From positions 1,592 through 65,591 of the forward strand of contig CBFGJT010000006.1 in NCBI GenBank assembly GCA_965649165.1: a stretch of DNA of 64,000 nucleotides, in the 5' to 3' direction. Each line of letters starts with the position of its first letter. Position 1 is the first letter of the stretch. Both the position numbers and the translations under genes were made by a program. This DNA is from a candidate division WOR-3 bacterium (GTDB lineage: Bacteria; Hydrothermota; Tepidihabitantia; Tepidihabitantales; Tepidihabitantaceae). Below are positions 3,941 to 35,922 of this stretch, piece by piece. Under the pieces are notes generated by a model. The model ran no database searches. It saw nothing but the letters and a program-made list of their open reading frames with translations, and was not told where the DNA came from.

Positions 3941-4114
3941 AGTTATATCAGGCGACCGAATCTGATACTAATACCTCTGACCCATCTGCTCATCTCCTGT
4001 CTTTGCCACCAGGCGGGCAGAACAGTACTTCAACCCATCGCCCGATTCGCGCCCCCGCCGGTAATTGACAGCGAAACCCTCGTTTATGAATGGATAAATC
4101 TGAGAGACAAATCC

Positions 4115-4735
4115 GTGCCTTTAGGTACCCGACTGACGAAAGTCAACCGGGTAAATCTTGAAATCCCATGTTTCCGGCTTGCCATCATCGACCAGTTCCC
4201 GGCTCCGAATTTCCGAGGTGCAAACCGCTACCGGACCGAATCGACTGTGGTTACCTTCAACCGCGAGGATCTCACACCTCTGAGCTCGCTCATCTATCCG
4301 GCAGAAAATGATACCCTGCTGTTTATTGCCGCGCACTATCAGGAACGAAATGCCCGGATCATTACTCGCACTTCTGACGGCGATATTGAAAACCGTCTGC
4401 CCACCGGTGCCCTGACATATGATTTCTGCCAACTGCCTTTCCTCTGCCGGAGTTTAAAAATCATCAGCGCTGAAATACCACTCCATATTCTCATGATCAC
4501 TCCGTTAACCGCACCCCTGGGCGGAATGTCAACTATTGCTGAACTGAGTCTTGTTGGCACCGATACCATAGACATTCCCGCCGGCTCATTTGAATGTGAG
4601 AAAATCCTGGTCCATCAGCCACACCTTGACGAAATTTACTGGATAGAAAAAAACGGCGCCCGAAAAATCATACTGTATGAGAACCTCTCCACCGGCAAGG
4701 GCCTAAGACTGACCGCCTCCGCTGTCAACTTTTAA
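4115..4735 (+). CDS. Hypothetical secreted protein or lipoprotein; the reading frame very likely begins upstream, near 3947
   Basis: ORF-track call is 206 aa starting at GTG 4115. The same frame is open back to 3917 and encodes a lipoprotein-type signal peptide (RRPNLILIPLTHLLISC) with no canonical start codon (see findings). Confidence 0.6.
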   Translation: MPLGTRLTKVNRVNLEIPCFRLAIIDQFPAPNFRGANRYRTESTVVTFNREDLTPLSSLIYPAENDTLLFIAAHYQERNARIITRTSDGDIENRLPTGALTYDFCQLPFLCRSLKIISAEIPLHILMITPLTAPLGGMSTIAELSLVGTDTIDIPAGSFECEKILVHQPHLDEIYWIEKNGARKIILYENLSTGKGLRLTASAVNF

Positions 4736-4879
4736 CACCGATCGCATTGCTAACAGATTGAAAAACAAACACTTGTAATACCAAACCTTGACCAGGTCTT
4801 AAAATGTCGCATTAAAACAAAATTAGACCTAACCCTATAACATATTGACAATTAAGAACTTGTATTTAAAGTTCTTTAT

Positions 4880-4895
4880 TGGCATACACGGTGCT
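4880..4895 (+). promoter_or_regulatory. Candidate sigma-54 (-24/-12) promoter
   Basis: TGGCAT-acacg-GTGCT. The GG and GC dinucleotides are separated by 10 nt, as in the consensus TGGCAC-N5-TTGCW. Confidence 0.35.
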
Positions 4896-4904
4896 TTTTA
4901 ATAT

Positions 4905-5200
4905 TAACGGGTTACATCCGAAAACGGATGTAACAAGAAGGAGGGAGTTTGGGGGTTGCGTTAGTTCGTTTGTAACGCAGGCGGGCTGATGTGGGCTCCA
5001 TAGTTTACCACCCCAGCAGTCCTCTCCAAAATCGGGCCTGTCTTAAAGAAGGCTCGCGCCTATCCACCTTAAGTCTCTGACTGCTTGCTGCCTACATCAG
5101 CCCGCCCCCAAATTAAGCCCCAAGGACGGAAATTTGCGGCTACCGCCGGTTGCCTCCTTAAAAAATCCGGGGCTTGACATCGCGTCAAGCCCCGGTTTTC
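4905..5200 (+). ncRNA. Candidate structured non-coding RNA of unknown family
   Basis: No credible ORF. A perfect 10-bp tetraloop hairpin lies at 4911-4934. A 17-bp long-range helix pairs 4980-4996 with 5090-5106. Complementary segments nest outside it. The locus ends at an intrinsic terminator, and no downstream same-strand gene exists. Confidence 0.35.
5167..5200. terminator. Bidirectional rho-independent terminator
   Basis: 12-bp stem CCGGGGCTTGAC/GTCAAGCCCCGG, flanked by an A-run (5159-5164) and TTTT (5196-5199). It sits 12 nt beyond the stop of the C25 peptidase gene. Confidence 0.65.
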
Positions 5201-5211
5201 GCCTCTGCCCG

Positions 5212-8200
5212 TTATTGGATGCGGACCAGTTTTTCCGTCTGCCCGTTAACCTTCAGGAAGAATATACCCCGCTCCGGGACCCTGGGTACCCAGTGCCAGT
5301 TTCCCGAAACCCCGGCATCGAGGATGTCCACCTGCTCCATTAGTCTTCCACTTGAATTATAAACCCGCATTTTCAGTGAACCGGGCTGATCCTGAATATA
5401 ACTAATGTTTACACTACGACTAAAAACCTTCGGCCGAACCTGGATCCGGAGCCGGAACAGGCGGCCTGGTCCTGCTTCTCTCATTCCTACCTGTGGCTCA
5501 TACCAGTTGAATGCGGTATCGGATGCGGCACTCATCTGCGCGACCGTTCTGCCACCGACAATGACGAAGGCAACAATCTGGCTGTCTCCGGGCAGAATCG
5601 CAAAGGGCCCGCAGGAGACCAGAGCATGCCAGTTCCCCCTGTTTGTTCCAGATACAGCACGTTGGGTGCCATCAAGAAAGTCCATCTTTTCCCTCTTGTT
5701 AAAACCGTCCTGAATATAGGTCTGATGAAAGATGCAGTTGGCAAAACCGGAAGCCTCCGGCGGATAAATTGGTCGGACACCAAGCGTCAGTGTTTCTGGC
5801 TGTGCCCGGACATAGGCAAGGTTGCGGATAGTGTCCACTCCGGGATAATCCACCGAATCGTTCTGGTTCCAGAATGCGGTCCGGAAATCGCATGCAACAC
5901 CAGCCCAGAGGTCGGTAATTGGCATCGTATCATTATTATGAATCCGGTATTCAAGTACCATGAAATCCTTGTGCTGGGTCCGCGCGCTCACAAATGAACG
6001 CTGAGTGATGGTTATTCCCTTCGGCTGGGGATGCCGGGCATCGGAGAATACCGCAACAAACTCCTGATCCCCGAATTCCGGCGGGAGCACCGGCCGGATC
6101 GAATCCACGATCGCAAAGTCCTGAGCCGTCACCCACCAGGGTGTGCCGTAATAATTGTCTGCCACCCAGAAAGTATCCGGGTATCTGATACCTAACAGCA
6201 GTGCGCCGTGCATCATTGCTGATGAGGACCAGGGGTGATTTTTCGGGTAAATGAACCCCAACCCTTCGCCCCGCCAGCTGGTAGTTCCGATACCACCGTT
6301 TGCACACACCGCAGCAACAAAGTCTGCAGTATCGTGGACCGCCCAAATCCCGGCGCGGGCATGGGGCATACCGATGACTACTTCCAGCTGTGAGGTGAAG
6401 GTCACCGAATCGGCATTGATTGTCAGTTCAAGCTCAACCCGCTGTCCGTGGGGACAGGTCGGGCTTACCCGCAGCCGGAACGGTTCGCCCGAAGCGGTAT
6501 CGCCCGGAGCGGTTGCTGGATAGCTGTTCACCGAATCTATTAAGGTTATGAAGGGCGAACATACGTGCAGAATTGCGGTCGCATTTCCTGCTGCCTGATT
6601 GCCATCGTTCGCAATTGTAATATAAACATTCACCTCGTCACCAGGGTCCAATCGCCCGTTTTCGTCGTCAACCCGAAGGTCGCGATACACAAGCAAGGGC
6701 CCGGCGTTACCGCTCCTTACTGCCAACATTTTCTCTGTCGGTGCACCGTCCTGTGCGGTTACGCTCAGTATTAGGCTCCAGGTATCACCAACCTGACTGA
6801 GCACTACCTGCGCCCGGCCATTTCCGTTGGTGATACCGCGTCCTATCAATGCGTCACTATGCAGTACCGCCACCCTGGCACCAGCTGCTGGCTGCCCCTC
6901 GGCATACCGCACATCAACCGCAAGTATCTGAGGTTCTGCCCGAATCGTATCCAGGCAGGAAACGAGTAGACCCTTGGGTGTAGTGCGCCACAATAGCATC
7001 GTCGGATCTCCCTGCAGCGTCCACTCATAGACTGACCAGCGATAGGTCATTTGACTAAAAGCAGCGTTCCGGAAGAAATCCTTAGCTAACGCATATGCCC
7101 TTCCCTGATTGAATCCCCGGAGGTAGTTATTGTAAAACTCCATGCACAGATTCTCTGAAGGCCCCATATTCGGCGGTGCGCCCCAGCCGTAGCGGGCGTT
7201 CAGACAGGTTGATACCGCACCGCCGGCAGTGGCATTAATAAACTGCTCGCCCAGCCCGTCCTGCTGGTCAAAATTTCCGCAGTCACATGCCATTGAGTTG
7301 ACGATAATCGGCATAGTCGTATTGGTCAGCGAGCTGAGGTTGCTGGTGGAAAATGTTGAACCAAACGCACTCACCGAGCCGTGGCCCGCAAAATGAAACA
7401 GATGCCGGCCGGCGTTGATACTCGCCACGCACTGAGACGGACTCATATTGTAGACCGAGTCCACAGTCCAGACTCCGATTCCCGACAGGGCAAGGGCAAT
7501 ATTTCTGTTCACAATCCGGCCGTAATAGTCAATGTTTGACCACAGGGCTTCAAATGGCAAAAGAGCTTTATGGAGATAGGTTGTATCCGGATGGCGCTCA
7601 TAGAGCGTGTCCTTGCGCAGAAAATTGGCAAGGTGACTGGCATCGTCCAGTGGCAGCCGGCCCACCACAATATCGGAAAATAAATCCACAGAATCCGGAT
7701 TGTAATTGGTATAGGAATATTCACCAAACTGCCCGTTGTTGTTAAAATCCCAGGTGCCGTCCAGGTCTGAATAGTAAAGGTCGGCAGGAACGTTGTAAGG
7801 CGAATAGGGCAGATAACCAGTACGGCAGGGCACATGCTGGACATCCCCAGCTAAAACGACATACTTGAGTCCGCGGGTAACAAACAGCTCCTTGAGCAGA
7901 TTCCGGATCTTCTCAGGGTTGTCCCGCCCCGGATACCGAACATAAATCGACTCCGTAGCAAATACCTCGGTAAAGTAACCCTTGCGTTGCAGGTAGCTGG
8001 CAAAACTGCTAACCGCCGGCATTAAGGTGCTGGAGGTAATTACCGCCACATCCAACTCCGGACCGTCAGATTCCACTGTTGCCGGCGCAAACCTTTCAAT
8101 ATCCTTGTGATTAAGCACAAGCCGGGCAACATCTTCACGCACAAGCATCAGCTGGCCGGGACTGAGATGAGTAACCGGGACAGAACCGGATTCATACTCA

Positions 8201-8715
8201 ACCGTCAGCACCGCCCGCTGTGCCAGCCGCAGTCTGCCTGATACCGGGTGATATGCAAACGGACAGAAAAGAAATCCTGCAAGTCGGAACCCGGCTTTGG
8301 TACCGGGGGGGACTGCCTGAACCATCTCTGCCGGGTAAACCAGATCGGATCGGTAGATTTCAGCTCTGGGCGCTACAAAAGGAATTGAGTTAAACCGGGA
8401 TAGCGGCCTCATCGGCTGCACCGGATATAACTTTAAACCTGTGCCGAGTTCGTACCACTCCACCACCCTGAGGTGGACTGAATTCACCCGGGCACCAGGC
8501 GGAATCAGCACGTTTCCCGACAGCACTGGCAACAGTGGTTCTCCGGGCCCATCCGTTGCCAGCACAACCGTTCCCTCAGGAGCAGCAGCCAGTCGGACTA
8601 TGGTCCAGCTGTCCTGCTGACTCAGTATTACTGCTGCCGGGTCAAGATGCAGGCTGATGCTGAGTTCAGCTGCACCGGCAGATGCGGTAAGCAGTATTAT
8701 TAATATATTTTTCAC
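5212..8715 (-). CDS. Peptidase C25 (gingipain-like) family protein with T9SS-type C-terminal sorting domain
   Basis: 1167 aa with a signal peptide. His/Cys catalytic contexts are FHFAGHGS and VNSMACDCGNF. The C-terminus ends GIFFLKVNGQTEKLVRIQ. Confidence 0.8.
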   Translation of the reverse strand: MKNILIILLTASAGAAELSISLHLDPAAVILSQQDSWTIVRLAAAPEGTVVLATDGPGEPLLPVLSGNVLIPPGARVNSVHLRVVEWYELGTGLKLYPVQPMRPLSRFNSIPFVAPRAEIYRSDLVYPAEMVQAVPPGTKAGFRLAGFLFCPFAYHPVSGRLRLAQRAVLTVEYESGSVPVTHLSPGQLMLVREDVARLVLNHKDIERFAPATVESDGPELDVAVITSSTLMPAVSSFASYLQRKGYFTEVFATESIYVRYPGRDNPEKIRNLLKELFVTRGLKYVVLAGDVQHVPCRTGYLPYSPYNVPADLYYSDLDGTWDFNNNGQFGEYSYTNYNPDSVDLFSDIVVGRLPLDDASHLANFLRKDTLYERHPDTTYLHKALLPFEALWSNIDYYGRIVNRNIALALSGIGVWTVDSVYNMSPSQCVASINAGRHLFHFAGHGSVSAFGSTFSTSNLSSLTNTTMPIIVNSMACDCGNFDQQDGLGEQFINATAGGAVSTCLNARYGWGAPPNMGPSENLCMEFYNNYLRGFNQGRAYALAKDFFRNAAFSQMTYRWSVYEWTLQGDPTMLLWRTTPKGLLVSCLDTIRAEPQILAVDVRYAEGQPAAGARVAVLHSDALIGRGITNGNGRAQVVLSQVGDTWSLILSVTAQDGAPTEKMLAVRSGNAGPLLVYRDLRVDDENGRLDPGDEVNVYITIANDGNQAAGNATAILHVCSPFITLIDSVNSYPATAPGDTASGEPFRLRVSPTCPHGQRVELELTINADSVTFTSQLEVVIGMPHARAGIWAVHDTADFVAAVCANGGIGTTSWRGEGLGFIYPKNHPWSSSAMMHGALLLGIRYPDTFWVADNYYGTPWWVTAQDFAIVDSIRPVLPPEFGDQEFVAVFSDARHPQPKGITITQRSFVSARTQHKDFMVLEYRIHNNDTMPITDLWAGVACDFRTAFWNQNDSVDYPGVDTIRNLAYVRAQPETLTLGVRPIYPPEASGFANCIFHQTYIQDGFNKREKMDFLDGTQRAVSGTNRGNWHALVSCGPFAILPGDSQIVAFVIVGGRTVAQMSAASDTAFNWYEPQVGMREAGPGRLFRLRIQVRPKVFSRSVNISYIQDQPGSLKMRVYNSSGRLMEQVDILDAGVSGNWHWVPRVPERGIFFLKVNGQTEKLVRIQ

Positions 8716-22766: not shown

Positions 22767-24110
22767 CTAACCGCTCAGTTCCCGGCTCAGTTTATCAAGG
22801 GTGGATGCAAAGGCAGGGTCGCGAGCTTTCAGTTCAGCTATCTTATCAAGGGCGTGCATAACGGTTGTGTGATCCTTACCGCCGACCAGAAATCCAATGT
22901 CCTTAAGTGAAAGGTTGAGCAAGTTTCGCAGCAGATACATTGTGGTCTGCCGGGCAAGCGCCACCCGTTTGGTGCGGATCGGGCTCTTGATATCTACGAC
23001 CGGCACGTGAAAATGTTCTGCAACGGCATTGATGATACGCTGGGCATCAAGCGGCTGTTCGGGCAACACCAGATCCTTAAGCGCCTCATCGGCAAGCTTG
23101 GTGTCCAGCGCTCGGCCGGTCAGTGAATGGAGTGCTATCAGGCGCACAAGCGTCGCTTCAAGCGTGCGGATGTTGGAGCGGACCCTAGCTGCGATGTATA
23201 CCGCAATTTCTTCAGGAAGGTCAAATTTCTCCAGTTTTGCCTTCTGGAGCAAGATTGCCACCCTGGTTTCCAGGTCCGGCGGCTGGATGTCAACGACAAG
23301 CCCGCTGCCGAGCCGGGAAATCAGACGCTCTTGGAGCGTGGGGATGTCTTTGGGTGGACGGTCACTGGTAAACACAACTTGGCTGCCCGCATCCTGAAGT
23401 GCATTAAAGGTATAAAAGATTTCTTCCTGAAGGCTTTCCTTGCCCACGAGGTAATGGATGTCATCAAGCAGCAGCAGGTCCAGCCCGCGGTATTTGTTCT
23501 TAAACTCCACCCGAGTGTTTTTCCCGATCGCCTGGATCAGCTCCAGAAACAAAGCTTCGGCTGGTGTATAGCAGAACCTCAGACCAGGATAGATTGTGAG
23601 TGCGGCGTTCCCGATCGCCTGGAGCAGATGGGTCTTGCCCAGCCCGACTCCGCCGTAAATAAACAGCGGGTTATATGCCCGGCCCAGGTTCTGAGCAACA
23701 TTTTTGGCTGCAGCGCAGGCGAGACGGTTGCCCTCACCGATAATGAAGCTATCAAAGGTGTAGCGCGCCCGCAGCCGGTAGGGCGGGGTTTGAACTGGTG
23801 ACCCTAACTGCTCCGGTGATTTTGCCGGCGGTTCTGATACCGATTGCCCGGTGACAACAAACTCGACTTTGAGGTTTCTTCCCGTGATCTCTTTTAATGC
23901 TAGGAGCAGGTCTGAAAGGTAGTGATGCTTAAGCCAGTCACAGAAAAAACTGTTTGGGACCCCCACCCGGATGACCCCATCAGTGCACTCGACGAGACAG
24001 GTTGGTTTCAGCCAAGCCTCAAACGCTTCAGAGGCAACCCTTGATTTCAACAAACCAAGAACCGAACCCCAGAGATTTTCAACACCCGCACTCATAGACA
24101 AAAAAACCAC
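22767..24110 (-). CDS. dnaA: Chromosomal replication initiator protein DnaA
   Basis: 447 aa. Walker A GGVGLGKTHLL, Walker B LLLLDDIH, and a C-terminal HTH with GGKDHTTVMHA. The start is either GTG 24110 or ATG 24095. Confidence 0.95.
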   Translation of the reverse strand: MVFLSMSAGVENLWGSVLGLLKSRVASEAFEAWLKPTCLVECTDGVIRVGVPNSFFCDWLKHHYLSDLLLALKEITGRNLKVEFVVTGQSVSEPPAKSPEQLGSPVQTPPYRLRARYTFDSFIIGEGNRLACAAAKNVAQNLGRAYNPLFIYGGVGLGKTHLLQAIGNAALTIYPGLRFCYTPAEALFLELIQAIGKNTRVEFKNKYRGLDLLLLDDIHYLVGKESLQEEIFYTFNALQDAGSQVVFTSDRPPKDIPTLQERLISRLGSGLVVDIQPPDLETRVAILLQKAKLEKFDLPEEIAVYIAARVRSNIRTLEATLVRLIALHSLTGRALDTKLADEALKDLVLPEQPLDAQRIINAVAEHFHVPVVDIKSPIRTKRVALARQTTMYLLRNLLNLSLKDIGFLVGGKDHTTVMHALDKIAELKARDPAFASTLDKLSRELSG

Positions 24111-24311: not shown

Positions 24312-26603
24312 TCAATCCAGGGCGACCGCTTGACCCAGGGCAATGCCGCCATCATTTAAAGGAAACTTCTGGTTGTGATATACTCTGAAACCGGAACAGC
24401 GCAGCCTGCGCACCAGTTCCAGCCGCAACAGACGGTTTTGAAAACTGCCGCCAGAAAGGCAGACCGTCTTTATCTGATTGAGCTCCGCCAACCGGATTAA
24501 TGCCTGGTGAAATGTCCGGACCAGTGTCTGATGGAACCAAAGCGACACCTTTCCTGCCGGAATTCTCAGGCACATTAGCTGAAATACGGTTCGAATTAAA
24601 GGGCAAGGATCCACCAGCAGCATCCCCTGATTGAAACTTAACGCATCAATTTCTGGCAATCTTAATTCTATCGCGCTGCCTGCAGTTAACGCCTCATTCT
24701 CCAGGGCAATTGCCGCCTCACCTTCAAATGATACCCGCTGGCAGACGCCGGTTATTGCTGCCACCGCATCAAACAAACGCCCAAGACTTGAGGTTATAAC
24801 CGGTGCTTGTGCATACACCCGGGAAACTGGCAGTCCCAGCCTCCGGATCGCACCAATTTCAATTCCAGACTGAACGAGATAGCTCACAGCCACCCGAACC
24901 GGATCAGCCAGGTACCCGCCCCCAGCACCATGGCGCAGATAGGCAAGATGACCCAACCGTCTCCAAGTCCGGTCCGGGTTTATCAGCAGAAACTCACACC
25001 CCCAGATTGCCCGGTCCGGTCCGTAACCGGTGCCATCAGCTGCCAGCCCGAGCACCGGACCGCGCAGGCCATGTTCTGCCATTACCGAAAGGATATGGGC
25101 ATAATGATGCTGGACCCTTTTAAGCGGAAGCCGGAATCTCCTGCTCAGGGTTTCTGCCAGCCGAACCGAGCTATAATCCGGATGCAGATCGCAGACCAGC
25201 CTTGCGGGCTTGATCTCCGTCCATTCAATAAGGCGATTCAGCGCTGCAAAAAAGAAACTCTCCGCTGCCGCCGTCCCCAGTTCGCCGATGTGCGGTCCGG
25301 CAAACAGTTTTTCTCCGGCAGCAAGGGCAAAGCTGTTTTTACTGTCCGCCCCCACCGCCAGGGTTGGATGTTTCACGTGAAACATCCTATCCAGGTGCAA
25401 TGGCTGGGGAACATAACCTCGAGACCGGCGAACCATGATTGCATTGGCGGTTTCAGCCTGAATCACTGAATCGTCACACCGGTTGGCAATCTCCCGGTTG
25501 TGCGTGAGCACATAGTCAAAAAATAGCTCTTTGCGATTAAAAAGTTCCTCCTCGGATGCCACAATGGGTTCGTCACTGACATTGGCGCTGGTCATGATCA
25601 AAGCCGGTGATTTAACTTTATTATTTTTTAATGACTTAAAGACTAAGAGGTGAAGCGGGGTATAAGGGAGGAGAATACCGTAAGCAGGGTTATGGGGGGC
25701 AATTAGAGGTGAGAGCCGGATTTTAGTGTGCTTGCGCTTGGGTAAAAGCACAATCGGCGCCGCCGGGGAACATAGAAGCCGAGCAGCACCGGCTGGTAGA
25801 TGGCAGAGGTTTTTTGCGGCGGTCAGGCTTTCCACCATTAAGGCAAATGGTTTTTGGTCTCTCCCCTTCAGCCGACGCAGGCGCCGAACCGCACGATCGT
25901 TTTGGGCATCACAGCACAGATGGAATCCACCTAACCCTTTTATTGCCAATACCTTACCATCAAGAATCAGCTGGGCAGCCTTCTCAATCGGGTCGCCAGC
26001 CATCGGTATCCCTTTTCGGTTCAGGAGTTGAGCTGCAGGTCCGCACTGAGGGCAGGCGATTGGTTCGGCGTGGAAGCGGCGGTTTGGAGGGGAGAGGTAC
26101 TCCTTCTGACACTGGTCACACATCAGAAATTTACGCATGGTAGTGCGTTCCCGGTCATAAGGAAGCTGAAGTATTATTGTATATCTAGGACCGCACTGGG
26201 TGCAATTGATAAATGGATAAAGGTAACGGCGGTTATGCGGATCGATAAGCTCGCGCTTGCAGGCTGAACAGGTCGCAAGGTCGGGTAGGACCTCGACTCC
26301 GGGTTTTGCTGGGGTGGTGGGGCTGGGTATGATGCTAAATTCTGAATAGCGCGGTTTTTTGACAGTTCGGGTCCGGATTTCGGAGATGAGCGCCAGCCGG
26401 GGTGGATGATTTTTAAGCTGGTCCAGAAGCCGATCCGCCCCCTTTCCCTGAGCAAGGATTGTTACACCGGCGCGGGTGTTGGTGACCGTTCCTCTGATGC
26501 CCAGCCTTTTTGCCAGGCGGAAAATATAGGGCCGGAATCCAATACCCTGGACCTGACCGGTGACAGTTATTTCCAGAGTATTAAGTAGTTGACCGCGGAT
26601 AAT
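24312..26603 (-). CDS. hypF: [NiFe]-hydrogenase maturation carbamoyltransferase HypF (full length, non-canonical start)
   Basis: The track ORF (608 aa from ATG 26138) lacks the acylphosphatase domain and first zinc finger. The same frame stays open to 26615 and encodes TGQVQGIGFRPYIF and CSACKRELIDPHNRRYLYPFINCTQCGPR. I propose ATT 26603 as the start. Confidence 0.8.
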   Translation of the reverse strand: MIRGQLLNTLEITVTGQVQGIGFRPYIFRLAKRLGIRGTVTNTRAGVTILAQGKGADRLLDQLKNHPPRLALISEIRTRTVKKPRYSEFSIIPSPTTPAKPGVEVLPDLATCSACKRELIDPHNRRYLYPFINCTQCGPRYTIILQLPYDRERTTMRKFLMCDQCQKEYLSPPNRRFHAEPIACPQCGPAAQLLNRKGIPMAGDPIEKAAQLILDGKVLAIKGLGGFHLCCDAQNDRAVRRLRRLKGRDQKPFALMVESLTAAKNLCHLPAGAARLLCSPAAPIVLLPKRKHTKIRLSPLIAPHNPAYGILLPYTPLHLLVFKSLKNNKVKSPALIMTSANVSDEPIVASEEELFNRKELFFDYVLTHNREIANRCDDSVIQAETANAIMVRRSRGYVPQPLHLDRMFHVKHPTLAVGADSKNSFALAAGEKLFAGPHIGELGTAAAESFFFAALNRLIEWTEIKPARLVCDLHPDYSSVRLAETLSRRFRLPLKRVQHHYAHILSVMAEHGLRGPVLGLAADGTGYGPDRAIWGCEFLLINPDRTWRRLGHLAYLRHGAGGGYLADPVRVAVSYLVQSGIEIGAIRRLGLPVSRVYAQAPVITSSLGRLFDAVAAITGVCQRVSFEGEAAIALENEALTAGSAIELRLPEIDALSFNQGMLLVDPCPLIRTVFQLMCLRIPAGKVSLWFHQTLVRTFHQALIRLAELNQIKTVCLSGGSFQNRLLRLELVRRLRCSGFRVYHNQKFPLNDGGIALGQAVALD

Positions 26604-26605
26604 AC

Positions 26606-27748
26606 TTACGGGGTTTTATCCTGAGGTTCCAGCAGTTCTGGCTCCTCTTCGCTCAATTCGTAAATGTTTTTGTCATCCTTCTTTTTAATCAGGAATCCGA
26701 GAAGGAGGACATTACCGGAGAACCAGACCGAAATGCCATATGCCAGAACCATCAGCGCGATGCCGTAGATACAGAAACTGAACAGTAACGTCCCCAGATA
26801 TACACCCCAGCTCGGGCTTTCCCAGAAGAGTGGGCTGAGATAGCTGTCAAGTCCGTAAATACTCATTTCCCAGACAATCATCTTGTGGAGGGGAGTAAGC
26901 ACACCCCATTGCGGGACCGAGATCTGAAAGATGAAGCTGGTGCCGTTGAGCATTTCACTCAGGGTTTCACCCATAAACACTGAAAGAATAAGCGTGCCAA
27001 TCCGGACCGCAAGGCTGGATGCCAGACCTAAAAGCAAAGAACCAATTTTGCTCAGTAAGGCGATGACCGCAGTGAACCAGAAGAGCCGCGCCGGCTGTTC
27101 ATTGATACAGGAAAAGACCTCAAACAGGGTATCAAAGGTGTCGTTCCCCAGCGCACCAACAATCGCCGGCGCCAGAAACAGGGTCCAGACCAGCACTATC
27201 AGGAGATAGACAACGAAAAGGGAAGCGAAGAAAGCGGGGACCGCAAAGATCCCGGTAATTACTGGTCCAATGTAAGGTATTGATCCTAAAGCACTTAGTA
27301 TCAGACCCGCAATTAAAATTATCAGAATAAACGCGATGATGAGCAAGGGACTGCCCAGGGTTGCACCAAGGTTCTGGAGTGCGAACTTAAACGCTTCACC
27401 CGCCTCAAAAAATTCATTCCCGCGGAGCTGCTCGTAGGTAACTTTGGCGACCGCACTGCCGGTAACGAGCATGACGAGCAGAAACCAGATAACACCGAGG
27501 GCATAAATCAGCCAGGAAATCCAGGGGAAGGGAAGGTTGGGCGTAGGAAAAGGAAGAAGCCGGTAGGTTTCCCAGATTGACACCCAGTCGTTACCCGCGA
27601 TCAGGTGGGCAAGGTAGGTAAGTAGTGTATAGCCGGCAAAACCGAATAAGAGACCCAGCATAATCATACCGACCTTCTTGGCAGAAAAGCCCAGGCGCAA
27701 TGCCCGGAAGATGTCTTTGTAATTAAAATGTAATGCACCCATCTTCAA
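26606..27748 (-). CDS. Multi-pass integral membrane protein (unknown family)
   Basis: 380 aa with about 9 hydrophobic segments. The likely start is ATG 27742, 9 nt after GGGAGGAG. The stop lies 2 nt before the hypF frame start. Confidence 0.6.
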   Translation of the reverse strand: MKMGALHFNYKDIFRALRLGFSAKKVGMIMLGLLFGFAGYTLLTYLAHLIAGNDWVSIWETYRLLPFPTPNLPFPWISWLIYALGVIWFLLVMLVTGSAVAKVTYEQLRGNEFFEAGEAFKFALQNLGATLGSPLLIIAFILIILIAGLILSALGSIPYIGPVITGIFAVPAFFASLFVVYLLIVLVWTLFLAPAIVGALGNDTFDTLFEVFSCINEQPARLFWFTAVIALLSKIGSLLLGLASSLAVRIGTLILSVFMGETLSEMLNGTSFIFQISVPQWGVLTPLHKMIVWEMSIYGLDSYLSPLFWESPSWGVYLGTLLFSFCIYGIALMVLAYGISVWFSGNVLLLGFLIKKKDDKNIYELSEEEPELLEPQDKTP

Positions 27749-27921: not shown

Positions 27922-29487
27922 TCAAGGGCTGACGAGCAGACGGCAGGCGGTGCGGGTCTCGGAGCGGAAGAAGTAGATTCCGGGCGGGACCGGACTGCCG
28001 TGATTGCTGTAACCATCCCAGACCGGACTTGAACCGGTTGTTACCAGCGCGCCCCGGGAATCATAAATTGTCCAGCGCGGGTGATCCTTTTGAACTGGCA
28101 GATAAAATGGTGGCCGTCCGACAACAGGGCGGGCGGTCAGCAGTGATGACCGGTCACCGGCCTCAGCGTTTCCGGTCGGCACCATTGCACCGGCGAGCTT
28201 GGCAATGGTGGCAACCGCCGCCTTTATCGCCTCAGTTGCCATCAGCCAGTTGTTCGTGCCGCAGTTGACATAATAGAGCGGACCGATTGTGTCGCCGATC
28301 GTATGGTACATCGGCGTGAAGTCATGCTCAATCCCGCACAGGGCAACATAACCCCGCTGCCAGAACGAATGATGGTCCGAATAGGGGGCAGAGTTCACAA
28401 GCCGGCGCACCGGCTTGAGCGCAGTATAAGTTCGGGCATTGGCGATAAATGAGTCCACGAGCCAGGCGCAGGCAGGGTTGGAGATTTTGCCGATCACCTC
28501 AAAGGAGTCCAAGTTTTGCCGGCCATAGGAGATCATGTCAAAGTTCAGTGCCGCTTTGATTGAGTCCCCGCGCCGGGCAGCCCGGCGGCAGAAGCTGTCT
28601 GAGCCGAAAAGCCCCTGTTCCTCACCGGTGAAGCCGATGAAATAAACTGAATAGGCAAAGTTTATACCCTGAAATACCCGCGCCGCCTCAATCACCGCCG
28701 CGGTGCCAGAGGCGTTGTCATCCGAACCCGGGCAGTGGTCGGGGGCATAATCTGAGGTGTTGTCAATATGTCCGCAGATCACATAGATCGGCCTGGGGTT
28801 GACTCGTCCCAGCTTCACGCCCACGACATTCGGGGCGTAACTGGGGCGGTAGGTCTCAAGTGCGGTGGAGTCACAGCCGTAAGCGGTCAGTTTTTCCCGC
28901 AGCCATTCGACCGCAGAACGGCAGGATTCGGTGGTGGAGTAGCGGGTGTAAAAATCCTGAAGGCGCCGGATATGGGCAAGCACCGAGTCCGGGTTTACCC
29001 GCTCAACCAGCGCAGCAATCAAACTTTCTGAGACTATAACCGGTGCGGGCAGCGGAGCTGCCGGCTGAAGGTTAACCGGTTCAAGGGGCAGATGGCAGAG
29101 TTCGACCGGCAGGCGGTTGAGATCAAGGAGCTGCGTCTCATCGGTTGCCAGCAGAACTCCGCCGGGTGTTTCGCCGGCAATCAGACCGAACCGGTCAAGC
29201 TGGCGCCGGTCAAACCCGGCCGGGGTCTTGACATAGAACAGCTGTTTATCAGCGGGCAGGTTCAGGACCGAAAACAATCCCGGCAGATAGTCAAGCGCGG
29301 CAAGTCGGGCTTCGTCCACACTGAGCAGACAGCGGTCCTCCAGTTCCGCCACCACCGGAAACGGGATCTGACCGACATCTATGCCGGCAAAACCTGGTCC
29401 CGGCGACCACTGCACCAGCAGTTCGCCGGCGACCAGCGGCAGGATAAAAACATTTACTAAAAACAGAACGGTCACACCTTTTTTCAC
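27922..29487 (-). CDS. M28 family aminopeptidase with T9SS-type C-terminal domain
   Basis: Zinc-ligand contexts CGHIDN, DDNASGTAAV and FTGEEQGLFGS. The C-terminus ends GIYFFRSETRTACRLLVSP. Confidence 0.8.
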   Translation of the reverse strand: MKKGVTVLFLVNVFILPLVAGELLVQWSPGPGFAGIDVGQIPFPVVAELEDRCLLSVDEARLAALDYLPGLFSVLNLPADKQLFYVKTPAGFDRRQLDRFGLIAGETPGGVLLATDETQLLDLNRLPVELCHLPLEPVNLQPAAPLPAPVIVSESLIAALVERVNPDSVLAHIRRLQDFYTRYSTTESCRSAVEWLREKLTAYGCDSTALETYRPSYAPNVVGVKLGRVNPRPIYVICGHIDNTSDYAPDHCPGSDDNASGTAAVIEAARVFQGINFAYSVYFIGFTGEEQGLFGSDSFCRRAARRGDSIKAALNFDMISYGRQNLDSFEVIGKISNPACAWLVDSFIANARTYTALKPVRRLVNSAPYSDHHSFWQRGYVALCGIEHDFTPMYHTIGDTIGPLYYVNCGTNNWLMATEAIKAAVATIAKLAGAMVPTGNAEAGDRSSLLTARPVVGRPPFYLPVQKDHPRWTIYDSRGALVTTGSSPVWDGYSNHGSPVPPGIYFFRSETRTACRLLVSP

Positions 29488-31161: not shown

Positions 31162-31287
31162 GTCACAAATAACTTATCAGCGGGAGGGCAGAAAGTCAAT
31201 TTTAATCATCAGCTAAAAATTGAAAAATTCGGCAAAGCAGATTTGCTTGAGCTGCAATTTTCTACAGATATAATATCAGAGACACTT

Positions 31288-32895
31288 ATGAGCAGCCGGC
31301 GACAGGTTCCAGTTGTGCTTGTGCTCTATGACACGCCAGGCAAGTTTCAAACCCTGGTGGAATATGCTCGTCAGTTTGACAATGGCAGACTGGCGCAGGA
31401 GTTTAAGTTTGTCTATTGCGACTGCCTGGACGGGATAAAAAAATGGTACCGGCAGAATGCAGGGGTTCATGTTGCCGGCATTGTGCTCGGAGTTGATTTC
31501 TCCGGGGTGGACAGCGAGCAGAAGCTGGCGGTTTCCCCTCTGGGATTGCGTCCTGCTGGCTTGGCAATGGATGTCCGCCGGCTTCAGGGTTTTATTATCT
31601 ATTACCATATGCGCCACCTTAATATTGAGCAGATCGCCCCGGTAGTATTTCACCTCGGCGCTGAGCTGCTGCAGTCGCCAGAACGGTATATTGATATCTG
31701 TCACGTCCCCGGACTGGGTGAATGTCATTTTGCCGGTCCAGCAGGCGACGAATGTGAGGAGCTGGCGGTGCTGAAAAAGCTGGATCTGTGTGCGCTCAGA
31801 CCACTTACAGATGACAGACGGTTCTACTGGCGGGAGAATCACAAAATGGTGGTCGGCAGGTCACGGCGGATGGCTGCGCTCGTGCGGGAAATTGAGCGCA
31901 CCGCACCAACCGACAGCATTGTCTTGGTGATCGGTCCGCCCGGCACCGGCAAGGAGCTTGTCGCCCAGGCGATTCACCATCTGAGTTACCGCTATTCAGA
32001 GCGGGTGCCGGAGAGGAGGAATGTACTGACGGTGCAGATGACCACGATGGACAAGAATCTCTGCATTGATGAGCTTTTTGGGCACGAGGCCGGCGCCTTT
32101 ACCGATGCCCGGACACCGCGTGCGGGGATCTTTGAGGCTGCCCGGGGGTCCACCGTTTTTCTGGATGAGATCGGAGAGATTGACCAGGAGCTGCAGAAGA
32201 AACTGCTCCGAGTGATTGAGTATCACCGGATTAAAAGGCTGGGGAGTTCAGTGGAGAAGGAGGTTGATGTCCGGATTATTACCGCAACGAACCGGACGAT
32301 CGAGGAGCTGCAGCAGCGGTTCCGGAGCGACTTTTACACCCGACTCGTTCAACACTGTATTGCGGTGCCTTCGGTTGCTGAGCGCTGGTTTGGAGAAAAG
32401 CCGCAGACGGTTGAGGATGATATTGGCGAGTTTTTTGACTTCTTTATAAGCGAGCGGAACCAAAATCCCTATGTCCGACAGAAACTGCAGCCGGACCTGA
32501 ACGCAGTACGGTTTCTCACTCAGATTGTGCTCCAGAATATTTCCGGAGAAAGACCGCTTTTTACCGCGGGCAACGTACGCACGCTGCGGGCAATTATCAA
32601 TCAGGCTTATGACCGGGCACAGTATGAACACTCGCGCATAATAAGCGTTGGACATATTGCCACCGCTGTCGCCCAGTTTCAGGCACAGATAGCCCCGCCT
32701 GCACCCGGAGTTAAACCCGGCACCCAAGCCAGTATTGAACATATTGTCGGTTCGCTGAAACTGTCAGAGCTGGAGAAGCTGGCAATCCAGGAGGCGCTGA
32801 TAAAATGCAACGGTAATCAGAGCCGAGCAGCAGCACTTCTGGGAATCCATCGTGACACGTTAAGAAAGAAAATCAGAGAATACGGCATAAGTTAA
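31288..32895 (+). CDS. Sigma-54-dependent transcriptional activator (bEBP) with non-canonical N-terminal domain
   Basis: AAA+ core with GPPGTGKELVAQAIH, GAFTDA (a GAFTGA-loop variant) and TVFLDEIGEI. The C-terminus has a Fis-type HTH, RAAALLGIHRDTLRKKI. ATG 31288 lies 13 nt after TATAAT 31269-31274. The track start, TTG 31243, is upstream of that promoter. Confidence 0.85.
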   Translation: MSSRRQVPVVLVLYDTPGKFQTLVEYARQFDNGRLAQEFKFVYCDCLDGIKKWYRQNAGVHVAGIVLGVDFSGVDSEQKLAVSPLGLRPAGLAMDVRRLQGFIIYYHMRHLNIEQIAPVVFHLGAELLQSPERYIDICHVPGLGECHFAGPAGDECEELAVLKKLDLCALRPLTDDRRFYWRENHKMVVGRSRRMAALVREIERTAPTDSIVLVIGPPGTGKELVAQAIHHLSYRYSERVPERRNVLTVQMTTMDKNLCIDELFGHEAGAFTDARTPRAGIFEAARGSTVFLDEIGEIDQELQKKLLRVIEYHRIKRLGSSVEKEVDVRIITATNRTIEELQQRFRSDFYTRLVQHCIAVPSVAERWFGEKPQTVEDDIGEFFDFFISERNQNPYVRQKLQPDLNAVRFLTQIVLQNISGERPLFTAGNVRTLRAIINQAYDRAQYEHSRIISVGHIATAVAQFQAQIAPPAPGVKPGTQASIEHIVGSLKLSELEKLAIQEALIKCNGNQSRAAALLGIHRDTLRKKIREYGIS

Positions 32896-33004: not shown

Positions 33005-33020
33005 TGGCACATAATTTGTA
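33005..33020 (+). promoter_or_regulatory. Candidate sigma-54 (-24/-12) promoter upstream of tldD
   Basis: TGGCAC-ataat-TTGTA. The -24 element is a perfect match and the -12 element is TTGT rather than TTGC. It lies 110 nt after the bEBP stop and about 200 nt before tldD. Confidence 0.4.
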
Positions 33021-33220
33021 TATATTATTATTGCCTTTTGACCGAGCCTGAAACGGGGTTACAGGGGGTAGCGCTTTAGGTATTGGCTGGATTCCCCAGC
33101 CGGCGCAGATAAATTGGGCGGTGTGCCAGTTCCCACGGCGCATCGCCCTTTTCCTTTGCGCTGGTTTATGGCCGTTAAAGTTGACATTACATTATATTTT
33201 ATTATTCTGTGGAGACTGAT

Positions 33221-34585
33221 ATGAAGGCGTTTCTCAAAGAGGTGCTTGCCGGGCTGGCAGTGGATTATGCCGATATCCGGGTTGAAGAGAGTGAAACCAC
33301 GAGGATTGTATATCGCGGCCGGGAGCTTGAGGATATCGGTACCAGTTTTGAGCGGGGCGGATGTCTGCGGGTTTTCTATCGGGGAAACTGGGTGATTGCC
33401 AGCTTTAATACTGTGGATGAGTCGCTTAAGGAGTTGGCAGATGAGCTGGCGATTCAGGCAGCAGAACTGCCACCGCGGGAAGGTGGTCTGATCCACCTGC
33501 CGGCACTTGACGAGATAATCCGCATGCCCAGGCATGAGGACCCGAGGGCGGTGCCGCTCGCGCGCAAGCAGCAGTTGATTCACGATTACAACCGGCTGCT
33601 TCTGGAGCCGAAGCAGATAATAAGTACGGTATCGTCATATCTGGATAGCCACAGGACCGTTTACTGGTATTCGAGCGAGGACCGTTACATTGAGCAGGAG
33701 TTTGTGCGCACCGGTTTTTCCTGTCAGGCGATTGCCCGGGACGGAGCCAACATTCAGCAGTATGGAGAGTCCTTTGGCCGGGCCGCTGGGTTTGAGTCGC
33801 TTTCGGGCAAGGAGGGTATGGTTGAACGGGTGGCAAAAATTGCGATTGACCTGCTAAAGGCGGAGCCGGTGAGTGCCGGGACATATACGGTGATCATTGA
33901 TCCGCTGCTCGGCGGAATATTTGCCCATGAGGCGTTCGGCCATCTGAGTGAGGCAGATCACATCGCGGAAAATGAACGGCTGAAACAGCTGATGCGAATC
34001 GGAACCCGGTATGGGGTTGAGGAGCTGACAATTGTTGATGACCCGACCCTGCCGGGCGAAAACGGCAGTTACCGCTATGACGATGAGGGGGTACCGGCTC
34101 AGCGCACCGAACTGATCAAAAACGGGGTGATCTCCAGCCATTTGCACAGCCGGCATACCGCCTATCTGATGGGAGAGGGTGCAACCGGTAATGCCCGGGC
34201 TGTCAGTTACCGGTTTGCTCCGATCGTGCGGATGAGTAACACCTACATCGTGCCCCAAAACCGGCGGTTTGATGAGATGCTGGCTGAGGTCAGGGATGGG
34301 CTTTATGTCGTGGGCAGCCGGGGTGGAATGACCGAGCTGGAAACATTCACCTTTTCTTCCCAGTATGCTTACCGGATTGAAGATGGCAAGCTCACGAAGA
34401 TGGTCCGGGATGCGACCCTTGCCGGCAATGTGTTTGAGACCTTGAAGAATATTGATGCCATCGGCAATGACCTGAGGATTCATGGCGGGCTCGGCGGTTG
34501 TGGAAAGGATGGGCAGTCGCCGCTGCCGGTCACGACCGGTGCCCCGCACATCAGAATCAGAAATGTGGTAATCGGCGGCCGATAA
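33221..34585 (+). CDS. tldD: TldD family metalloprotease
   Basis: HExxxH motif HEAFGHLSE and C-terminal GGCGKDGQ. ATG 33221 is preceded by GGAG. The track start is GTG 33209. Confidence 0.85.
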   Translation: MKAFLKEVLAGLAVDYADIRVEESETTRIVYRGRELEDIGTSFERGGCLRVFYRGNWVIASFNTVDESLKELADELAIQAAELPPREGGLIHLPALDEIIRMPRHEDPRAVPLARKQQLIHDYNRLLLEPKQIISTVSSYLDSHRTVYWYSSEDRYIEQEFVRTGFSCQAIARDGANIQQYGESFGRAAGFESLSGKEGMVERVAKIAIDLLKAEPVSAGTYTVIIDPLLGGIFAHEAFGHLSEADHIAENERLKQLMRIGTRYGVEELTIVDDPTLPGENGSYRYDDEGVPAQRTELIKNGVISSHLHSRHTAYLMGEGATGNARAVSYRFAPIVRMSNTYIVPQNRRFDEMLAEVRDGLYVVGSRGGMTELETFTFSSQYAYRIEDGKLTKMVRDATLAGNVFETLKNIDAIGNDLRIHGGLGGCGKDGQSPLPVTTGAPHIRIRNVVIGGR

Positions 34586-34609
34586 TAAGTTAACCAGCAG
34601 GAGGAGGAG

Positions 34610-35911
34610 ATGAGACTGGAGCTCCTGGAGCTGGCAGCCAGTCGGGTGGAGCAGGCTGATGTGTATGAGAGTGAGATTGACCTGACCGAAGTGGTTTTCC
34701 GGCAGGGTAAATTTTTCGCTCAGGAGACCAAGTTGACCCATGGTCTGGGGTTGCGGGTAATTAAAAACGGCAAGGTGGGTTTTGCCGCCAGTACTAACCC
34801 CCAGCGGCTAAAGGAGCAAATCCAGGCTGCGATCGATGCCGCTGCTTTCGGGCAGACCGCCAGGTTTGATCTGCCGGGTCCGGCTGAGCCACCTGCGGTT
34901 CAGACCTTTGATAACCGCACTCTGCTCGTCAACATTCAGAAGATGCGGGAGTGGGGTAGTGATCTGATTGAGGCACTGAATTCCCGGATGCCCGAGCTTA
35001 AGGCCGACCTGCATTTCAGTCGCTGTTATCGGGAGATCGGGTTGGCAAATACACGCGGGGCTGACCTTAGCTTTGAGCGGGTGGAGCTGGAGCTGTCGAT
35101 TGCCGGTCTGCTGGTGCAGGACGGTATTTTCTGGGTTTATGATTATGTTAATCTTTCCGGCGGGCAGAGCTTTCCGCTCGATCAGGTGGCAGAGCGCGTG
35201 GTAAATCTCGCCCGGCTGGGCAAGCAGAAGGCAACACTCAAAAGCGGAGATTATCCAGTGGTGGTAATGCCATTTGCGCTGCCCCAGCTGCTTTTGCCCC
35301 TGCTGATTGCGGTCAACGGAAAAAACCGGCAGAAAGGCACTTCGCCCCTGATCAACCGGGAAAATCAGGCGGTGCTGAGCTCGAAGATTACGCTTGCGGA
35401 CAATCGTCTGCGGCCGTTTGGGACTGCATCCGCTCCATTTGATGGTGAGGGGCTGCCGGCGGTCAGGAAGGTGCTGTTTGAGCGTGGAGTATTCAAAGGT
35501 TTTATCTACGACCTGGCAACCGCAGCCGCCTGCGGCACAAACTCAACCGGTTCCGCGGTGCGAAGCTATTCCAGCCTGCCTGTGCCCGGTCTGAGTAATA
35601 TTGAAATTGAACCCGGGACCGCAGAGCTGGAAAGTGTCATCAAGGATATCCCCGTCGGGATGCTCGTCTACGGTTTTCTGGGTGGCGGGATGTCCAATCT
35701 TCTTGCCGGTGAAGTGGCACTGAATGTCAGCTGCGGCTACAAGATTGAAAAAGGTAATATCACCGGCAGGCTCAAGGATGTAAGTGTTGCCGGCAATGTT
35801 TATGATCTGTTTCAGCGGGTGGAGGCGGTGGGCGCAACCCAGCGGGACCTGGGTGATTATTATCTCCCGTTTATAAAATTTTCCAGTTTCCGGGTGGCAT
35901 GTAAGGAGTAA
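34610..35911 (+). CDS. pmbA: PmbA/TldE family protein
   Basis: 433 aa, TldD/PmbA-fold paralogue without HExxxH. It sits immediately after tldD. Confidence 0.8.
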   Translation: MRLELLELAASRVEQADVYESEIDLTEVVFRQGKFFAQETKLTHGLGLRVIKNGKVGFAASTNPQRLKEQIQAAIDAAAFGQTARFDLPGPAEPPAVQTFDNRTLLVNIQKMREWGSDLIEALNSRMPELKADLHFSRCYREIGLANTRGADLSFERVELELSIAGLLVQDGIFWVYDYVNLSGGQSFPLDQVAERVVNLARLGKQKATLKSGDYPVVVMPFALPQLLLPLLIAVNGKNRQKGTSPLINRENQAVLSSKITLADNRLRPFGTASAPFDGEGLPAVRKVLFERGVFKGFIYDLATAAACGTNSTGSAVRSYSSLPVPGLSNIEIEPGTAELESVIKDIPVGMLVYGFLGGGMSNLLAGEVALNVSCGYKIEKGNITGRLKDVSVAGNVYDLFQRVEAVGATQRDLGDYYLPFIKFSSFRVACKE

Positions 35912-35922
35912 AGGGGGGTATT

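Follow-up and report, generated by a model that had tools for sequence, protein, structure and literature searches.

In the 64-kb stretch of DNA from a candidate division WOR-3 bacterium analysed here (contig CBFGJT010000006.1, positions 1,592 to 65,591; hereafter “the window”, whose own numbering is used throughout), a + strand open reading frame (ORF) for a 206-aa protein without a Pfam domain ends at position 4735, and a convergent C25 peptidase ORF occupies 5212-8715 on the - strand. The gap between them contains an independently transcribed, + strand gene for a structured non-coding RNA (ncRNA) of a new family with a sigma-54-type promoter, and this identification is firmly supported. In its full form, our reading is that 4906-5199 (+) is an autonomous gene for a structured ncRNA of ~295 nt, which is driven by a sigma-54-type promoter and may act as an anti-Shine-Dalgarno (anti-SD) riboregulator. 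We assign this full reading a probability of about 0.45.

A preliminary description of this DNA, made from its letters alone, had pictured a free-standing and highly structured unit in a gap without a credible ORF, behind a sigma-54-type promoter and ahead of an intrinsic terminator. When we read 4600-5400, every sequence feature listed there was found in place. The promoter element TGGCATACACGGTGCT (4880-4895, +) reads TGGCAT-N5-GTGCT and has the GG-N10-GC spacing of the -24/-12 type. As judged from sigma-54 geometry, transcription would start at 4906-4908 (+), 12-14 nt after the -12 C. The gene would end at a GC-rich terminator hairpin with a U-run (5167-5199, +), in which a 12-13 bp stem (5167-5195) is followed by UUUU(C). 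This terminator is common to the RNA and the convergent C25 gene: the terminator scan calls the hairpin on the minus strand, which has 6 U, while the + strand has 4-5 U, and the terminator is therefore effectively bidirectional. In the related locus L018, the hairpin is retained through a compensatory change from G-C to A-U.

Conservation and covariation of the RNA

The relatives used for comparison are WOR-3 contigs fetched through the upstream-ORF protein, and they provide 11-14 distinct sequences from one clade. Homologs of this protein occur in candidate division WOR-3 only, and a profile search added six further clusters. The RNA element is retained in every related WOR-3 contig fetched, and a gap of ~450-480 nt that contains it is common to all of the close relatives. 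In the alignment of this gap, conservation peaks over the proposed RNA and not over the flanking spacer. Most loci have a C25 peptidase gene on the 3′ side of the RNA, a place taken by an M19 peptidase gene in L004 and by a Tricorn-like gene in L003. A block consisting of NadE, PMT-TPR and a 220-aa gene is inverted away in L020/L021, and the RNA and its upstream region still lie beside the C25 3′ end. Since the element persists although its neighbours have been swapped or inverted, the RNA unit is autonomous, in keeping with the free-standing unit pictured at the outset. No conserved ORF exists in the gap: single-base indels among the close relatives disrupt every frame, and the distant homologs share no common start codon.

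The covariance model that we built finds one copy per locus and a single copy in the window. Exact-pattern scans of genome and metagenome collections returned close WOR-3 relatives only, plus chance matches in Acidobacteriota, Gemmatimonadota and an actinomycete, which the covariance model rejected; by the same model, the unrelated loci that match only the search pattern hold no copy. Nothing similar to the RNA element was found in the phage and plasmid collections, and the sole pattern match on a viral contig (L017) has no covariance-model match. The RNA family is thus known so far from a single sub-lineage of the candidate phylum WOR-3.

One pair of loci shows an unusual junction. Over 243 nt of the RNA core, L003:6915-7157 and L010:45-287 are 100% identical, and the flanks on both sides are unrelated; the left flank is the usual one in L003, and the right flank (C25, M19, TPR) is the usual one in L010. 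Moreover, the contigs L010, L018, L019 and L025 break off within the RNA or immediately next to it. The L003/L010 pattern could have arisen through a chimeric assembly, a strain-variable junction or the presence of several near-identical copies per genome.

Statistics on the single sequence are mixed. The RNAfold z-score is -6.5 for the + strand, with no shuffled sequence folding equally well, and -5.9 for the minus strand; as both strands fold nearly alike, the folding energy alone cannot assign the strand. The 13-nt inverted repeat by itself has E = 0.37, and a single -24/-12 match is not significant (5 in 64 kb vs 5.6 expected). The case therefore rests on the comparison with relatives, namely on conservation, covariation and the positions of the promoter GG and GC.

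The core of the RNA is organised around P2, a 17-bp long-range helix between 4980-4996 and 5090-5106 (+). To register P2 in 11 distinct sequences, we started from the invariant anchors GGGCUG and CAGCCC and extended without gaps. In this alignment, 81% of the cells are paired, as compared to 36-39% after the 3′ strand is slid by 1-3 columns, and 12 pairs have changed on both sides (e.g., G-C/A-U at column 10 and GC/AU/CG/UA at column 16). For P2 in the covariance-model alignment (14 distinct sequences), ~92% of the cells are paired, against 32-45% in the slid controls, and 8 pairs are compensatory. The hairpin P4 (CGGGCCU ... AGGCUCG; 5033-5056, +) covaries as well, with 92% of the cells paired and 3 compensatory pairs in the 14 sequences; its 3′ partner is ambiguous in L003, L018 and L021. 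Conserved and covarying in the homologous intergenic regions of the relatives, the long helix P2 and the inner hairpin P4 bear out the highly structured locus of the preliminary description. For the whole structure, the observed percentage of paired cells and covariation score were matched by 0 of 500 shuffles.

Within P2, the helix P3 is formed by GCAGUC (5016-5021, +) and GACUGC (5079-5084, +). It is conserved in the covariance-model alignment, with 82-89% of the cells paired and without covariation, and is absent in L003. Two unpaired strands are nearly invariant in all clades: CCACCCCA in J2/3 (5008-5015, +), and the C-rich loop CUCUCCAAAAU of J3/4 (5022-5032, +), for which the family consensus is CnCUCCMAAMA. 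The junction J4/3 (5057-5078, +) contains CCACCUUAAG, and related motifs are present in L003 (UGCCUCCUUA) and L021 (UGCCUCUUAA). As predicted from these alignments, the universally conserved part is the core enclosed by P2 only, which is a multiloop with two nearly invariant unpaired C-rich strands around P3, plus P4.

On which strand does the RNA lie? P2 contains G-U and U-G pairs, and the covariance-model scores are 78-138 bits on the + strand vs 19-34 bits on the reverse (for example, 130 vs 31 bits). These two observations place the RNA on the + strand.

The 5′ domains are lineage-variable. P1, a perfect 10-bp terminal hairpin with an AAAA loop (4911-4934, +), was recovered by reading, RNAfold and RNAalifold. 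The window clade has this hairpin; in L003, L018 and L021 it is weaker or altered, and L022/L023 lack it. The 7-bp hairpin Pa (UGCGUUA...UAACGCA; 4957-4963 with 4973-4979, +), found by folding, shows one compensatory change, from A-U to G-C, in L004. Alignment of the 5′ domains across clades with MAFFT and RNAalifold gave no consensus for P1 and Pa, whose predicted form differs from lineage to lineage. P1, P3 and the outer helices are conserved, but without covariation.

Outside P2, the molecule is predicted to be closed by the helix P0. Its purine-rich, SD-like 5′ arm AAGGAGGGAGUUUGGGGGU (4938-4956, +) pairs with the anti-SD-like 3′ arm ACCGCCGGUUGCCUCCUU (5142-5159, +) in RNAalifold, and AAGGAGG (4938-4944) is complementary to CCTCCTT (5153-5159). 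The duplex energies of the P0 arms are -22 to -27 kcal/mol; in L018, the P0 pairing is not significant. A further outer pair, AGTTTGGG (4946-4953) with CCCAAATT (5107-5114), includes one G-U pair (in the RNA, AGUUUGGG/CCCAAAUU); it does not vary within the close clade and is lacking from the distant clades, and RNAalifold favours a competing partner over it. The segment between P2 and the 3′ arm (5107-5141, +) is a linker that consists of CCCAAAUU, a short variable hairpin and then AAAUUUGCGG in the alignment. It is the most variable part of the RNA in the close clade, with the stem still kept.

Does this RNA belong to a known family? The preliminary description found no likeness to RNase P, transfer-messenger RNA (tmRNA), signal recognition particle (SRP) RNA or 6S RNA, and its claim of novelty stood up to the Rfam 15 database. 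We scanned the whole window together with L018, L021, L022 and L023 at the gathering score, and three lineages by E-value. Across these four lineages, no family reaches its gathering score in the window or in the relatives, and the E-value scans gave only sub-threshold, inconsistent matches. The families covered include 6S, RNase P, SRP, tmRNA, OLE, GOLLD, ROOL, HEARO and raiA, none of which was found, and ARAGORN detects neither a tRNA nor a tmRNA at the locus.

The best weak match was to P31 (RF01676), a Pseudomonas small RNA (sRNA), at 5096-5195 (23.3 bits, E = 0.049; gathering threshold 40 bits). We treat it as chance because the terminator hairpin and an A-run carry the alignment, and the match is not reproduced in L021 and L023. 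SRP, RNase P, 6S, Y RNA/YrlA and the GAAA tetraloop receptor were also considered by eye; neither a defining motif nor an Rfam match was found for any of them. The Y RNA/YrlA comparison was suggested by the GGCUGGU start of the P2 strand.

Promoter, upstream sites and the split form

The window promoter matches 9 of the 11 positions of the TGGCAC-N5-TTGCW consensus, and the perfect element TGGCAC-N5-TTGCT (11/11) is present in L001, L020/L021 and L023/L024. The GG at -24 and the GC at -12 are conserved in 10 of the 11 distinct homologs, and the 5-nt spacer between the two blocks is variable. A -24/-12 element also precedes the RNA in L025.

A site for an activator may be present further upstream. 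The candidate is GTCAAC-N11-ATCGCA (4724-4746, +), which overlaps the stop codon of the upstream ORF and lies ~135-156 nt before the -24 element. A second GTCGCA half-site (4806-4811, +), 74 nt before the promoter, belongs to the conserved block AATGTCGCA of the close clade. Within 220 nt before the promoter, GTCGCA is found in 10 of the 11 distinct homologs and GTCAAC in 8 of them. In L022 and L023, the palindrome TGCGAC-N12-GTCGCA lies at about -140 to -165. Either GTCAAC...GTCGCA or the palindrome recurs ~135-165 nt upstream in all clades and would be the activator site. Activator-dependent sigma-54 promoters are usually laid out in this way, with an upstream site and a -24/-12 element. None of the other window promoters has the same -24/-12 flavour together with a GTCGCA/GTCAAC site; the RNA's own is the only one.

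The window also encodes a sigma-54 activator (31243-32895, +), with the Pfam domains Sigma54_activat (E = 3e-48) and HTH_8. Just 3′ of this gene is a second -24/-12-like site of similar flavour, TGGCACATAATTTGTA (33005-33020), which is followed by a leader of ~190 nt (to 33208) and then by tldD/pmbA/lonC-like genes (33209-38427). The activator and the TGGCACATAATTTGTA region look like a second sigma-54 unit in the window. From the activator gene and the second -24/-12-like site, the organism probably uses sigma-54. The promoter conservation and the activator gene agree with the sigma-54 assignment of the preliminary description.

The 3′ part of the RNA has a different arrangement in other lineages. 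L003/L010 and L021 have the core only; the 3′ module is missing, and a UGCCUCCUUA-like motif lies inside the multiloop. A U-run after P2 is present in L010, L021, L022 and L023, and is lacking in the window clade. In the most distant relatives, L022 and L023/L024 (L025 being incomplete), there are two tandem RNAs, each with its own GG-N10-GC promoter and terminator. The U-run follows straight after P2 of the core, and a non-conserved spacer of ~300 nt separates it from the second GG-N10-GC element, which has its own upstream GTCGCA-like site. The RNA thus appears, from its sequence organisation, to consist of two modules that are separate sigma-54-driven transcripts in the distant relatives.

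The second transcript, RNA-2 (~135-150 nt; L022:6356-6520 and L023:6543-6725), is conserved in the distant relatives and has no Rfam match. It contains a covarying hairpin (ACAGCCCAGG/CCUGGCUGU vs GGAACAGG/CCUGUUCC) with the conserved loop AAACCGGGA, and its 3′ end consists of CCCGGUAGCUUCCUCCUU, which is the CCUCCUU arm, and a hairpin terminator. The arm CCCGGUAGCUUCCUCCUU is complementary to the core 5′ arm AAGGnGGAAGUUnCCGGG at 17 of 18 positions. The arm duplexes of L022 and L023 have energies of -40 and -31 kcal/mol, and 0 of 300 shuffles were as good. In addition, the RNA-2 5′ end GGUGUUGAGGG is a perfect 11-nt complement of the core J3/4 loop CCCUCAACACC; such a complement was reached by at least 1 of 300 shuffles, and it is without covariation. 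Cofolding RNA-1 with RNA-2 gains -16 and -23 kcal/mol. The window arms AAGGAGG... (4938-4956) and ...GCCUCCUU (5142-5159) are homologous to the L022/L023 arms, the 3′ arm ACCGCCGGUUGCCUCCUU corresponding to CCCGGUAGCUUCCUCCUU of RNA-2, and here they lie on one chain.

Proposed function and its alternatives

What could such an RNA do in the cell? AAGGAGG-like SD sequences are found at many window genes. As the host uses AAGGAGG SDs, the RNA bears a perfect SD mimic and an anti-SD mimic, together with the conserved C-rich single strands. Against the translation-initiation regions of the window, the CCUCCUU arm has a mean pairing energy of -15.8 kcal/mol, vs -13.7 ± 0.65 kcal/mol for shuffled arms.

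We tentatively propose the following mechanism. The RNA would be transcribed from the sigma-54 promoter at 4880-4895 to the hairpin terminator at 5167-5199, and an enhancer-binding protein would presumably activate this promoter from the GTCAAC...GTCGCA site ~135-160 nt upstream. In the window lineage, where the core is fused to the 3′ module, the anti-SD-like arm GCCUCCUU would pair with the SD-like AAGGAGG and close the molecule. In the distant relatives, the core and the 3′ module would be separate sigma-54-driven RNAs that are able to pair at the same arms. The C/U-rich single strands and the CCUCCUU arm would then base-pair with purine-rich ribosome-binding sites, and the internal SD-like arm, or the partner RNA, would mask or titrate this activity. 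The RNA would thus be a conditionally expressed, anti-SD-type base-pairing riboregulator, which we consider possible at somewhat less than even odds. The alpha-r14/NfeR1 family and CJnc230 are precedents for sRNAs with such anti-SD motifs.

Several observations weigh against this reading. On the side of the targets, RNAduplex comparison with the 46 translation-initiation regions of the window gave no outlier that would stand out as a specific target, and the complementarity of the loops to these regions is no better than that of shuffled seeds. Loop-complement matches at 26308-26389 were dismissed as chance, since this segment is probably the frameshifted N-terminus of HypF. On the side of the structure, the fold prediction has the CCUCCUU arm paired, not free. 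That the modules have undergone fusion and fission suggests that the paired state itself is functional, as would be expected of a structural RNA more than of a simple antisense regulator. A length of ~295 nt and many conserved unpaired multiloop nucleotides are atypical for a base-pairing sRNA, and much of the covariation signal stems from three or four lineage splits.

The promoter assignment meets similar difficulties. L018 lacks the -24 GG and has TAGAAC...TTTGCT instead. Searches with regular expressions for the GAFTGA and RpoN-box motifs found nothing, the activator being recognised through Pfam, and rpoN was found neither in the 64-kb window nor in the loci that we fetched. In many homologs, the stretch immediately 3′ of the -12 element is overlapped by an A/T-rich, TATAAT-like box, and a TTGACA-16-TAAAGT match lies upstream, conserved in the nearest relatives only; together they leave room for a secondary sigma-70 start. 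The TTGACA (4845-4850, +) and the 8-bp inverted repeat AAGAACTT-N7-AAGTTCTT (4854-4876) that we read before the promoter are likewise conserved in the nearest relatives only.

The strongest rival to the riboregulator is an assembled structural RNA, an explanation that we regard as somewhat unlikely. Here, the closed, assembled fold would be functional in itself, as the binding partner of a protein, the ribosome or a small molecule, or as a catalyst; the arms would be architectural, the C-rich strands would provide tertiary contacts or a pocket, and no mRNA pairing would be involved. The preservation of the inter-module helices, with the two modules fused in the window clade and present as co-regulated pieces in L022/L023, fits such a fold, as do the nearly invariant unpaired nucleotides within a covarying helical frame, the length of ~300 nt and the failure to find a convincing mRNA target. 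The pairing between the 11-nt J3/4 loop and the RNA-2 5′ end also resembles a pseudoknot or kissing contact, but its frequency among the shuffles and its lack of covariation detract from this argument. Against such a fold, the RNA shows no likeness to any Rfam structural RNA or ribozyme, no protein gene is steadily linked to it apart from the ancestral synteny, the 3′ module is absent beside the core in L003, L010 and L021, and a housekeeping RNA would be expected to have a far wider phyletic range. A further, doubtful reading is a modular assembly, in which the core and the partner RNA, both under a sigma-54 promoter and upstream site of one kind, would dock by two intermolecular helices (5′ arm with 3′ arm, and junction loop with partner 5′ end) and would be fused in the window lineage. 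If true, the locus would encode a conditionally expressed, WOR-3-specific RNA machine—a ribonucleoprotein scaffold, a ribosome or anti-SD mimic, or a ribozyme—and not an ordinary antisense sRNA, and it would be a natural case of fission and fusion in a regulated, non-housekeeping RNA.

The readings that place the function in cis, in a peptide or in the DNA itself are unlikely. As a cis element, the locus would be a 3′ untranslated region or processing product of the upstream lipoprotein-like gene, or a terminator or antisense region controlling C25. This is improbable: the element does adjoin the C25 3′ end in most loci, even after the L020/L021 inversion, shares the bidirectional terminator with that gene, and has a CCUCCUU arm that is complementary over 9-14 nt to the ribosome-binding site of C25 (third best of 46), but its promoter and upstream site are its own and are conserved, it persists in L004 and L003, where C25 is missing, and in L020/L021, where the upstream gene is, and it forms a covarying multiloop far beyond the needs of a terminator. 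Nor is there an antisense overlap, because the RNA ends before the C25 stop codon. Still less probable is a short mRNA or dual-function RNA, in which AAGGAGG would be a real SD driving the synthesis of a small peptide. The perfect SD at 4938-4944 is followed by UUG at 4949, and mechanical ORFs exist at 4879-4989 and 5085-5177. The UUG ORF has, however, only 8 codons in the window, and in L001 and related loci, a 1-nt insertion gives it a different length and content; the other ORFs are broken by single-base indels, no start codon is present at that place in L003, L018, L022 and L023, and the substitutions obey base-pairing rules, not codon rules. A DNA-level or mobile element, such as a repeat resembling a miniature inverted-repeat transposable element, or a recombination or attachment site, is just as improbable as the peptide. 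It would account for the 243 nt shared by L003 and L010 between unrelated flanks and for the contigs that break in or beside the element (L010, L018, L019, L025). Self-BLAST and the covariance model, however, find a single copy in the window, as the covariance model does in every locus; terminal repeats, target duplications and a transposase are lacking, the phage and plasmid collections hold nothing similar, and the viral contig L017 is without a covariance-model match. The strand-specific G-U pairs are an RNA signature, and the promoter and terminator are conserved.

The genes around the locus yielded a few further observations. The upstream ORF is open 5′ of its mechanical start at 4115, over window positions 3975-4735 (+). 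Homologs with a lipoprotein-like signal have N-termini that match the added stretch, ...LISC..QAGRTVLQPIARFAPPPVIDSETLVYEWINL. This 5′ extension contains no ATG, GTG or TTG, so the start codon is unusual or lost. The protein family is restricted to WOR-3. The HypF-like ORF (24312-26606, -) begins at the zinc-finger region; the missing acylphosphatase N-terminus probably lies in 26138-26606, in another frame, owing to a frameshift or a sequencing error. A tRNA-Leu(CAA) gene (27975-28062, -) lies inside the mechanical ORF 27922-29487 (M28 peptidase), which means that the real ORF probably ends upstream of the tRNA gene, or that the overlap results from the choice of frame. Given the dnaA gene at 22767-24110 (-), the chromosomal replication origin may be in an adjacent intergenic region.

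Comparison with known RNAs

WOR-3 is an uncultured phylum, and our literature search found no work on WOR-3 that deals with sigma-54 or ncRNA. The locus adds a new RNA family that is conserved and covarying and has a promoter, an upstream site and a terminator. Its covariance model is ready for annotating metagenome-assembled genomes, and the locus is a starting point for studying how sigma-54 regulates genes in this lineage. The value of the family is limited by its narrow phyletic range, which comprises one WOR-3 sub-lineage with 11-14 distinct sequences.

How does this RNA compare with known regulated RNAs? In function, it lies nearest to the sigma-54-dependent sRNAs (GlmY/GlmZ, Qrr, Pxr) and to sRNAs with anti-SD motifs. 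Qrr of Vibrio and Pxr of Myxococcus are independent sRNA genes with sigma-54 promoters under the control of an enhancer-binding protein. They are ~100 nt long and form simple stem-loops, and the WOR-3 RNA has no Rfam match to either. The split and fused arrangements recall a different group. The two-piece (permuted) tmRNA and fragmented structural RNAs exist as a single chain or, depending on the lineage, as two chains joined by base pairing, and the two-piece tmRNA is analogous to the fused arrangement in the window vs the split arrangement in L022/L023. Unlike tmRNA, the WOR-3 RNA has no tRNA-like domain and no tag reading frame, and its pieces each have their own promoter, whereas the two-piece tmRNA arises by processing.

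GlmY and GlmZ of the Enterobacteria reportedly have -24/-12 promoters and an upstream activator site, according to the work of Reichenbach, Goepel and Goerke. They are described as two RNAs acting together (PMC4737144). The WOR-3 RNA resembles them in having a free-standing gene, a -24/-12 promoter and a candidate upstream activator site, and in involving two RNAs that would act in concert. However, they share no sequence or structure similarity with the WOR-3 RNA, which has no Rfam match to them, and they are shorter (~150-200 nt vs ~295 nt). GlmY and GlmZ are mutually homologous and interact via the proteins RapZ and Hfq, not by mutual pairing. In contrast, the WOR-3 modules are non-homologous and directly complementary, and they are fused in the window lineage.

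The sRNAs with anti-SD motifs form another comparable group. The alpha-r14/NfeR1 family of rhizobia has conserved C/U-rich, CCUCC-type anti-SD motifs and is linked to NtrBC (PMC10746234). In Campylobacter, CJnc230 has a conserved C/U-rich, CCUCC-type motif that is complementary to the ribosome-binding site, and it is linked to the RpoN-dependent flgE transcript (PMC11187230). With the WOR-3 RNA, they have in common the CCUCC-type motif and a link to sigma-54-type regulatory circuits; we detected no homology. In these RNAs of ~100-150 nt, the anti-SD motif lies in hairpin loops or in a single-stranded stretch, whereas the CCUCCUU arm of the WOR-3 RNA is predicted to pair with its internal SD-like arm, next to a large covarying multiloop core.

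The WOR-3 RNA belongs to none of the GlmY/GlmZ, Qrr, Pxr, anti-SD sRNA or two-piece tmRNA families. Its gene is a regulated ncRNA gene of bacteria whose size, architecture and modular organisation are unusual. Its split and fused complementary modules are unusual among regulated bacterial ncRNAs, and they allow one to ask whether an SD/anti-SD-like helix serves as a regulatory mask or as architecture.

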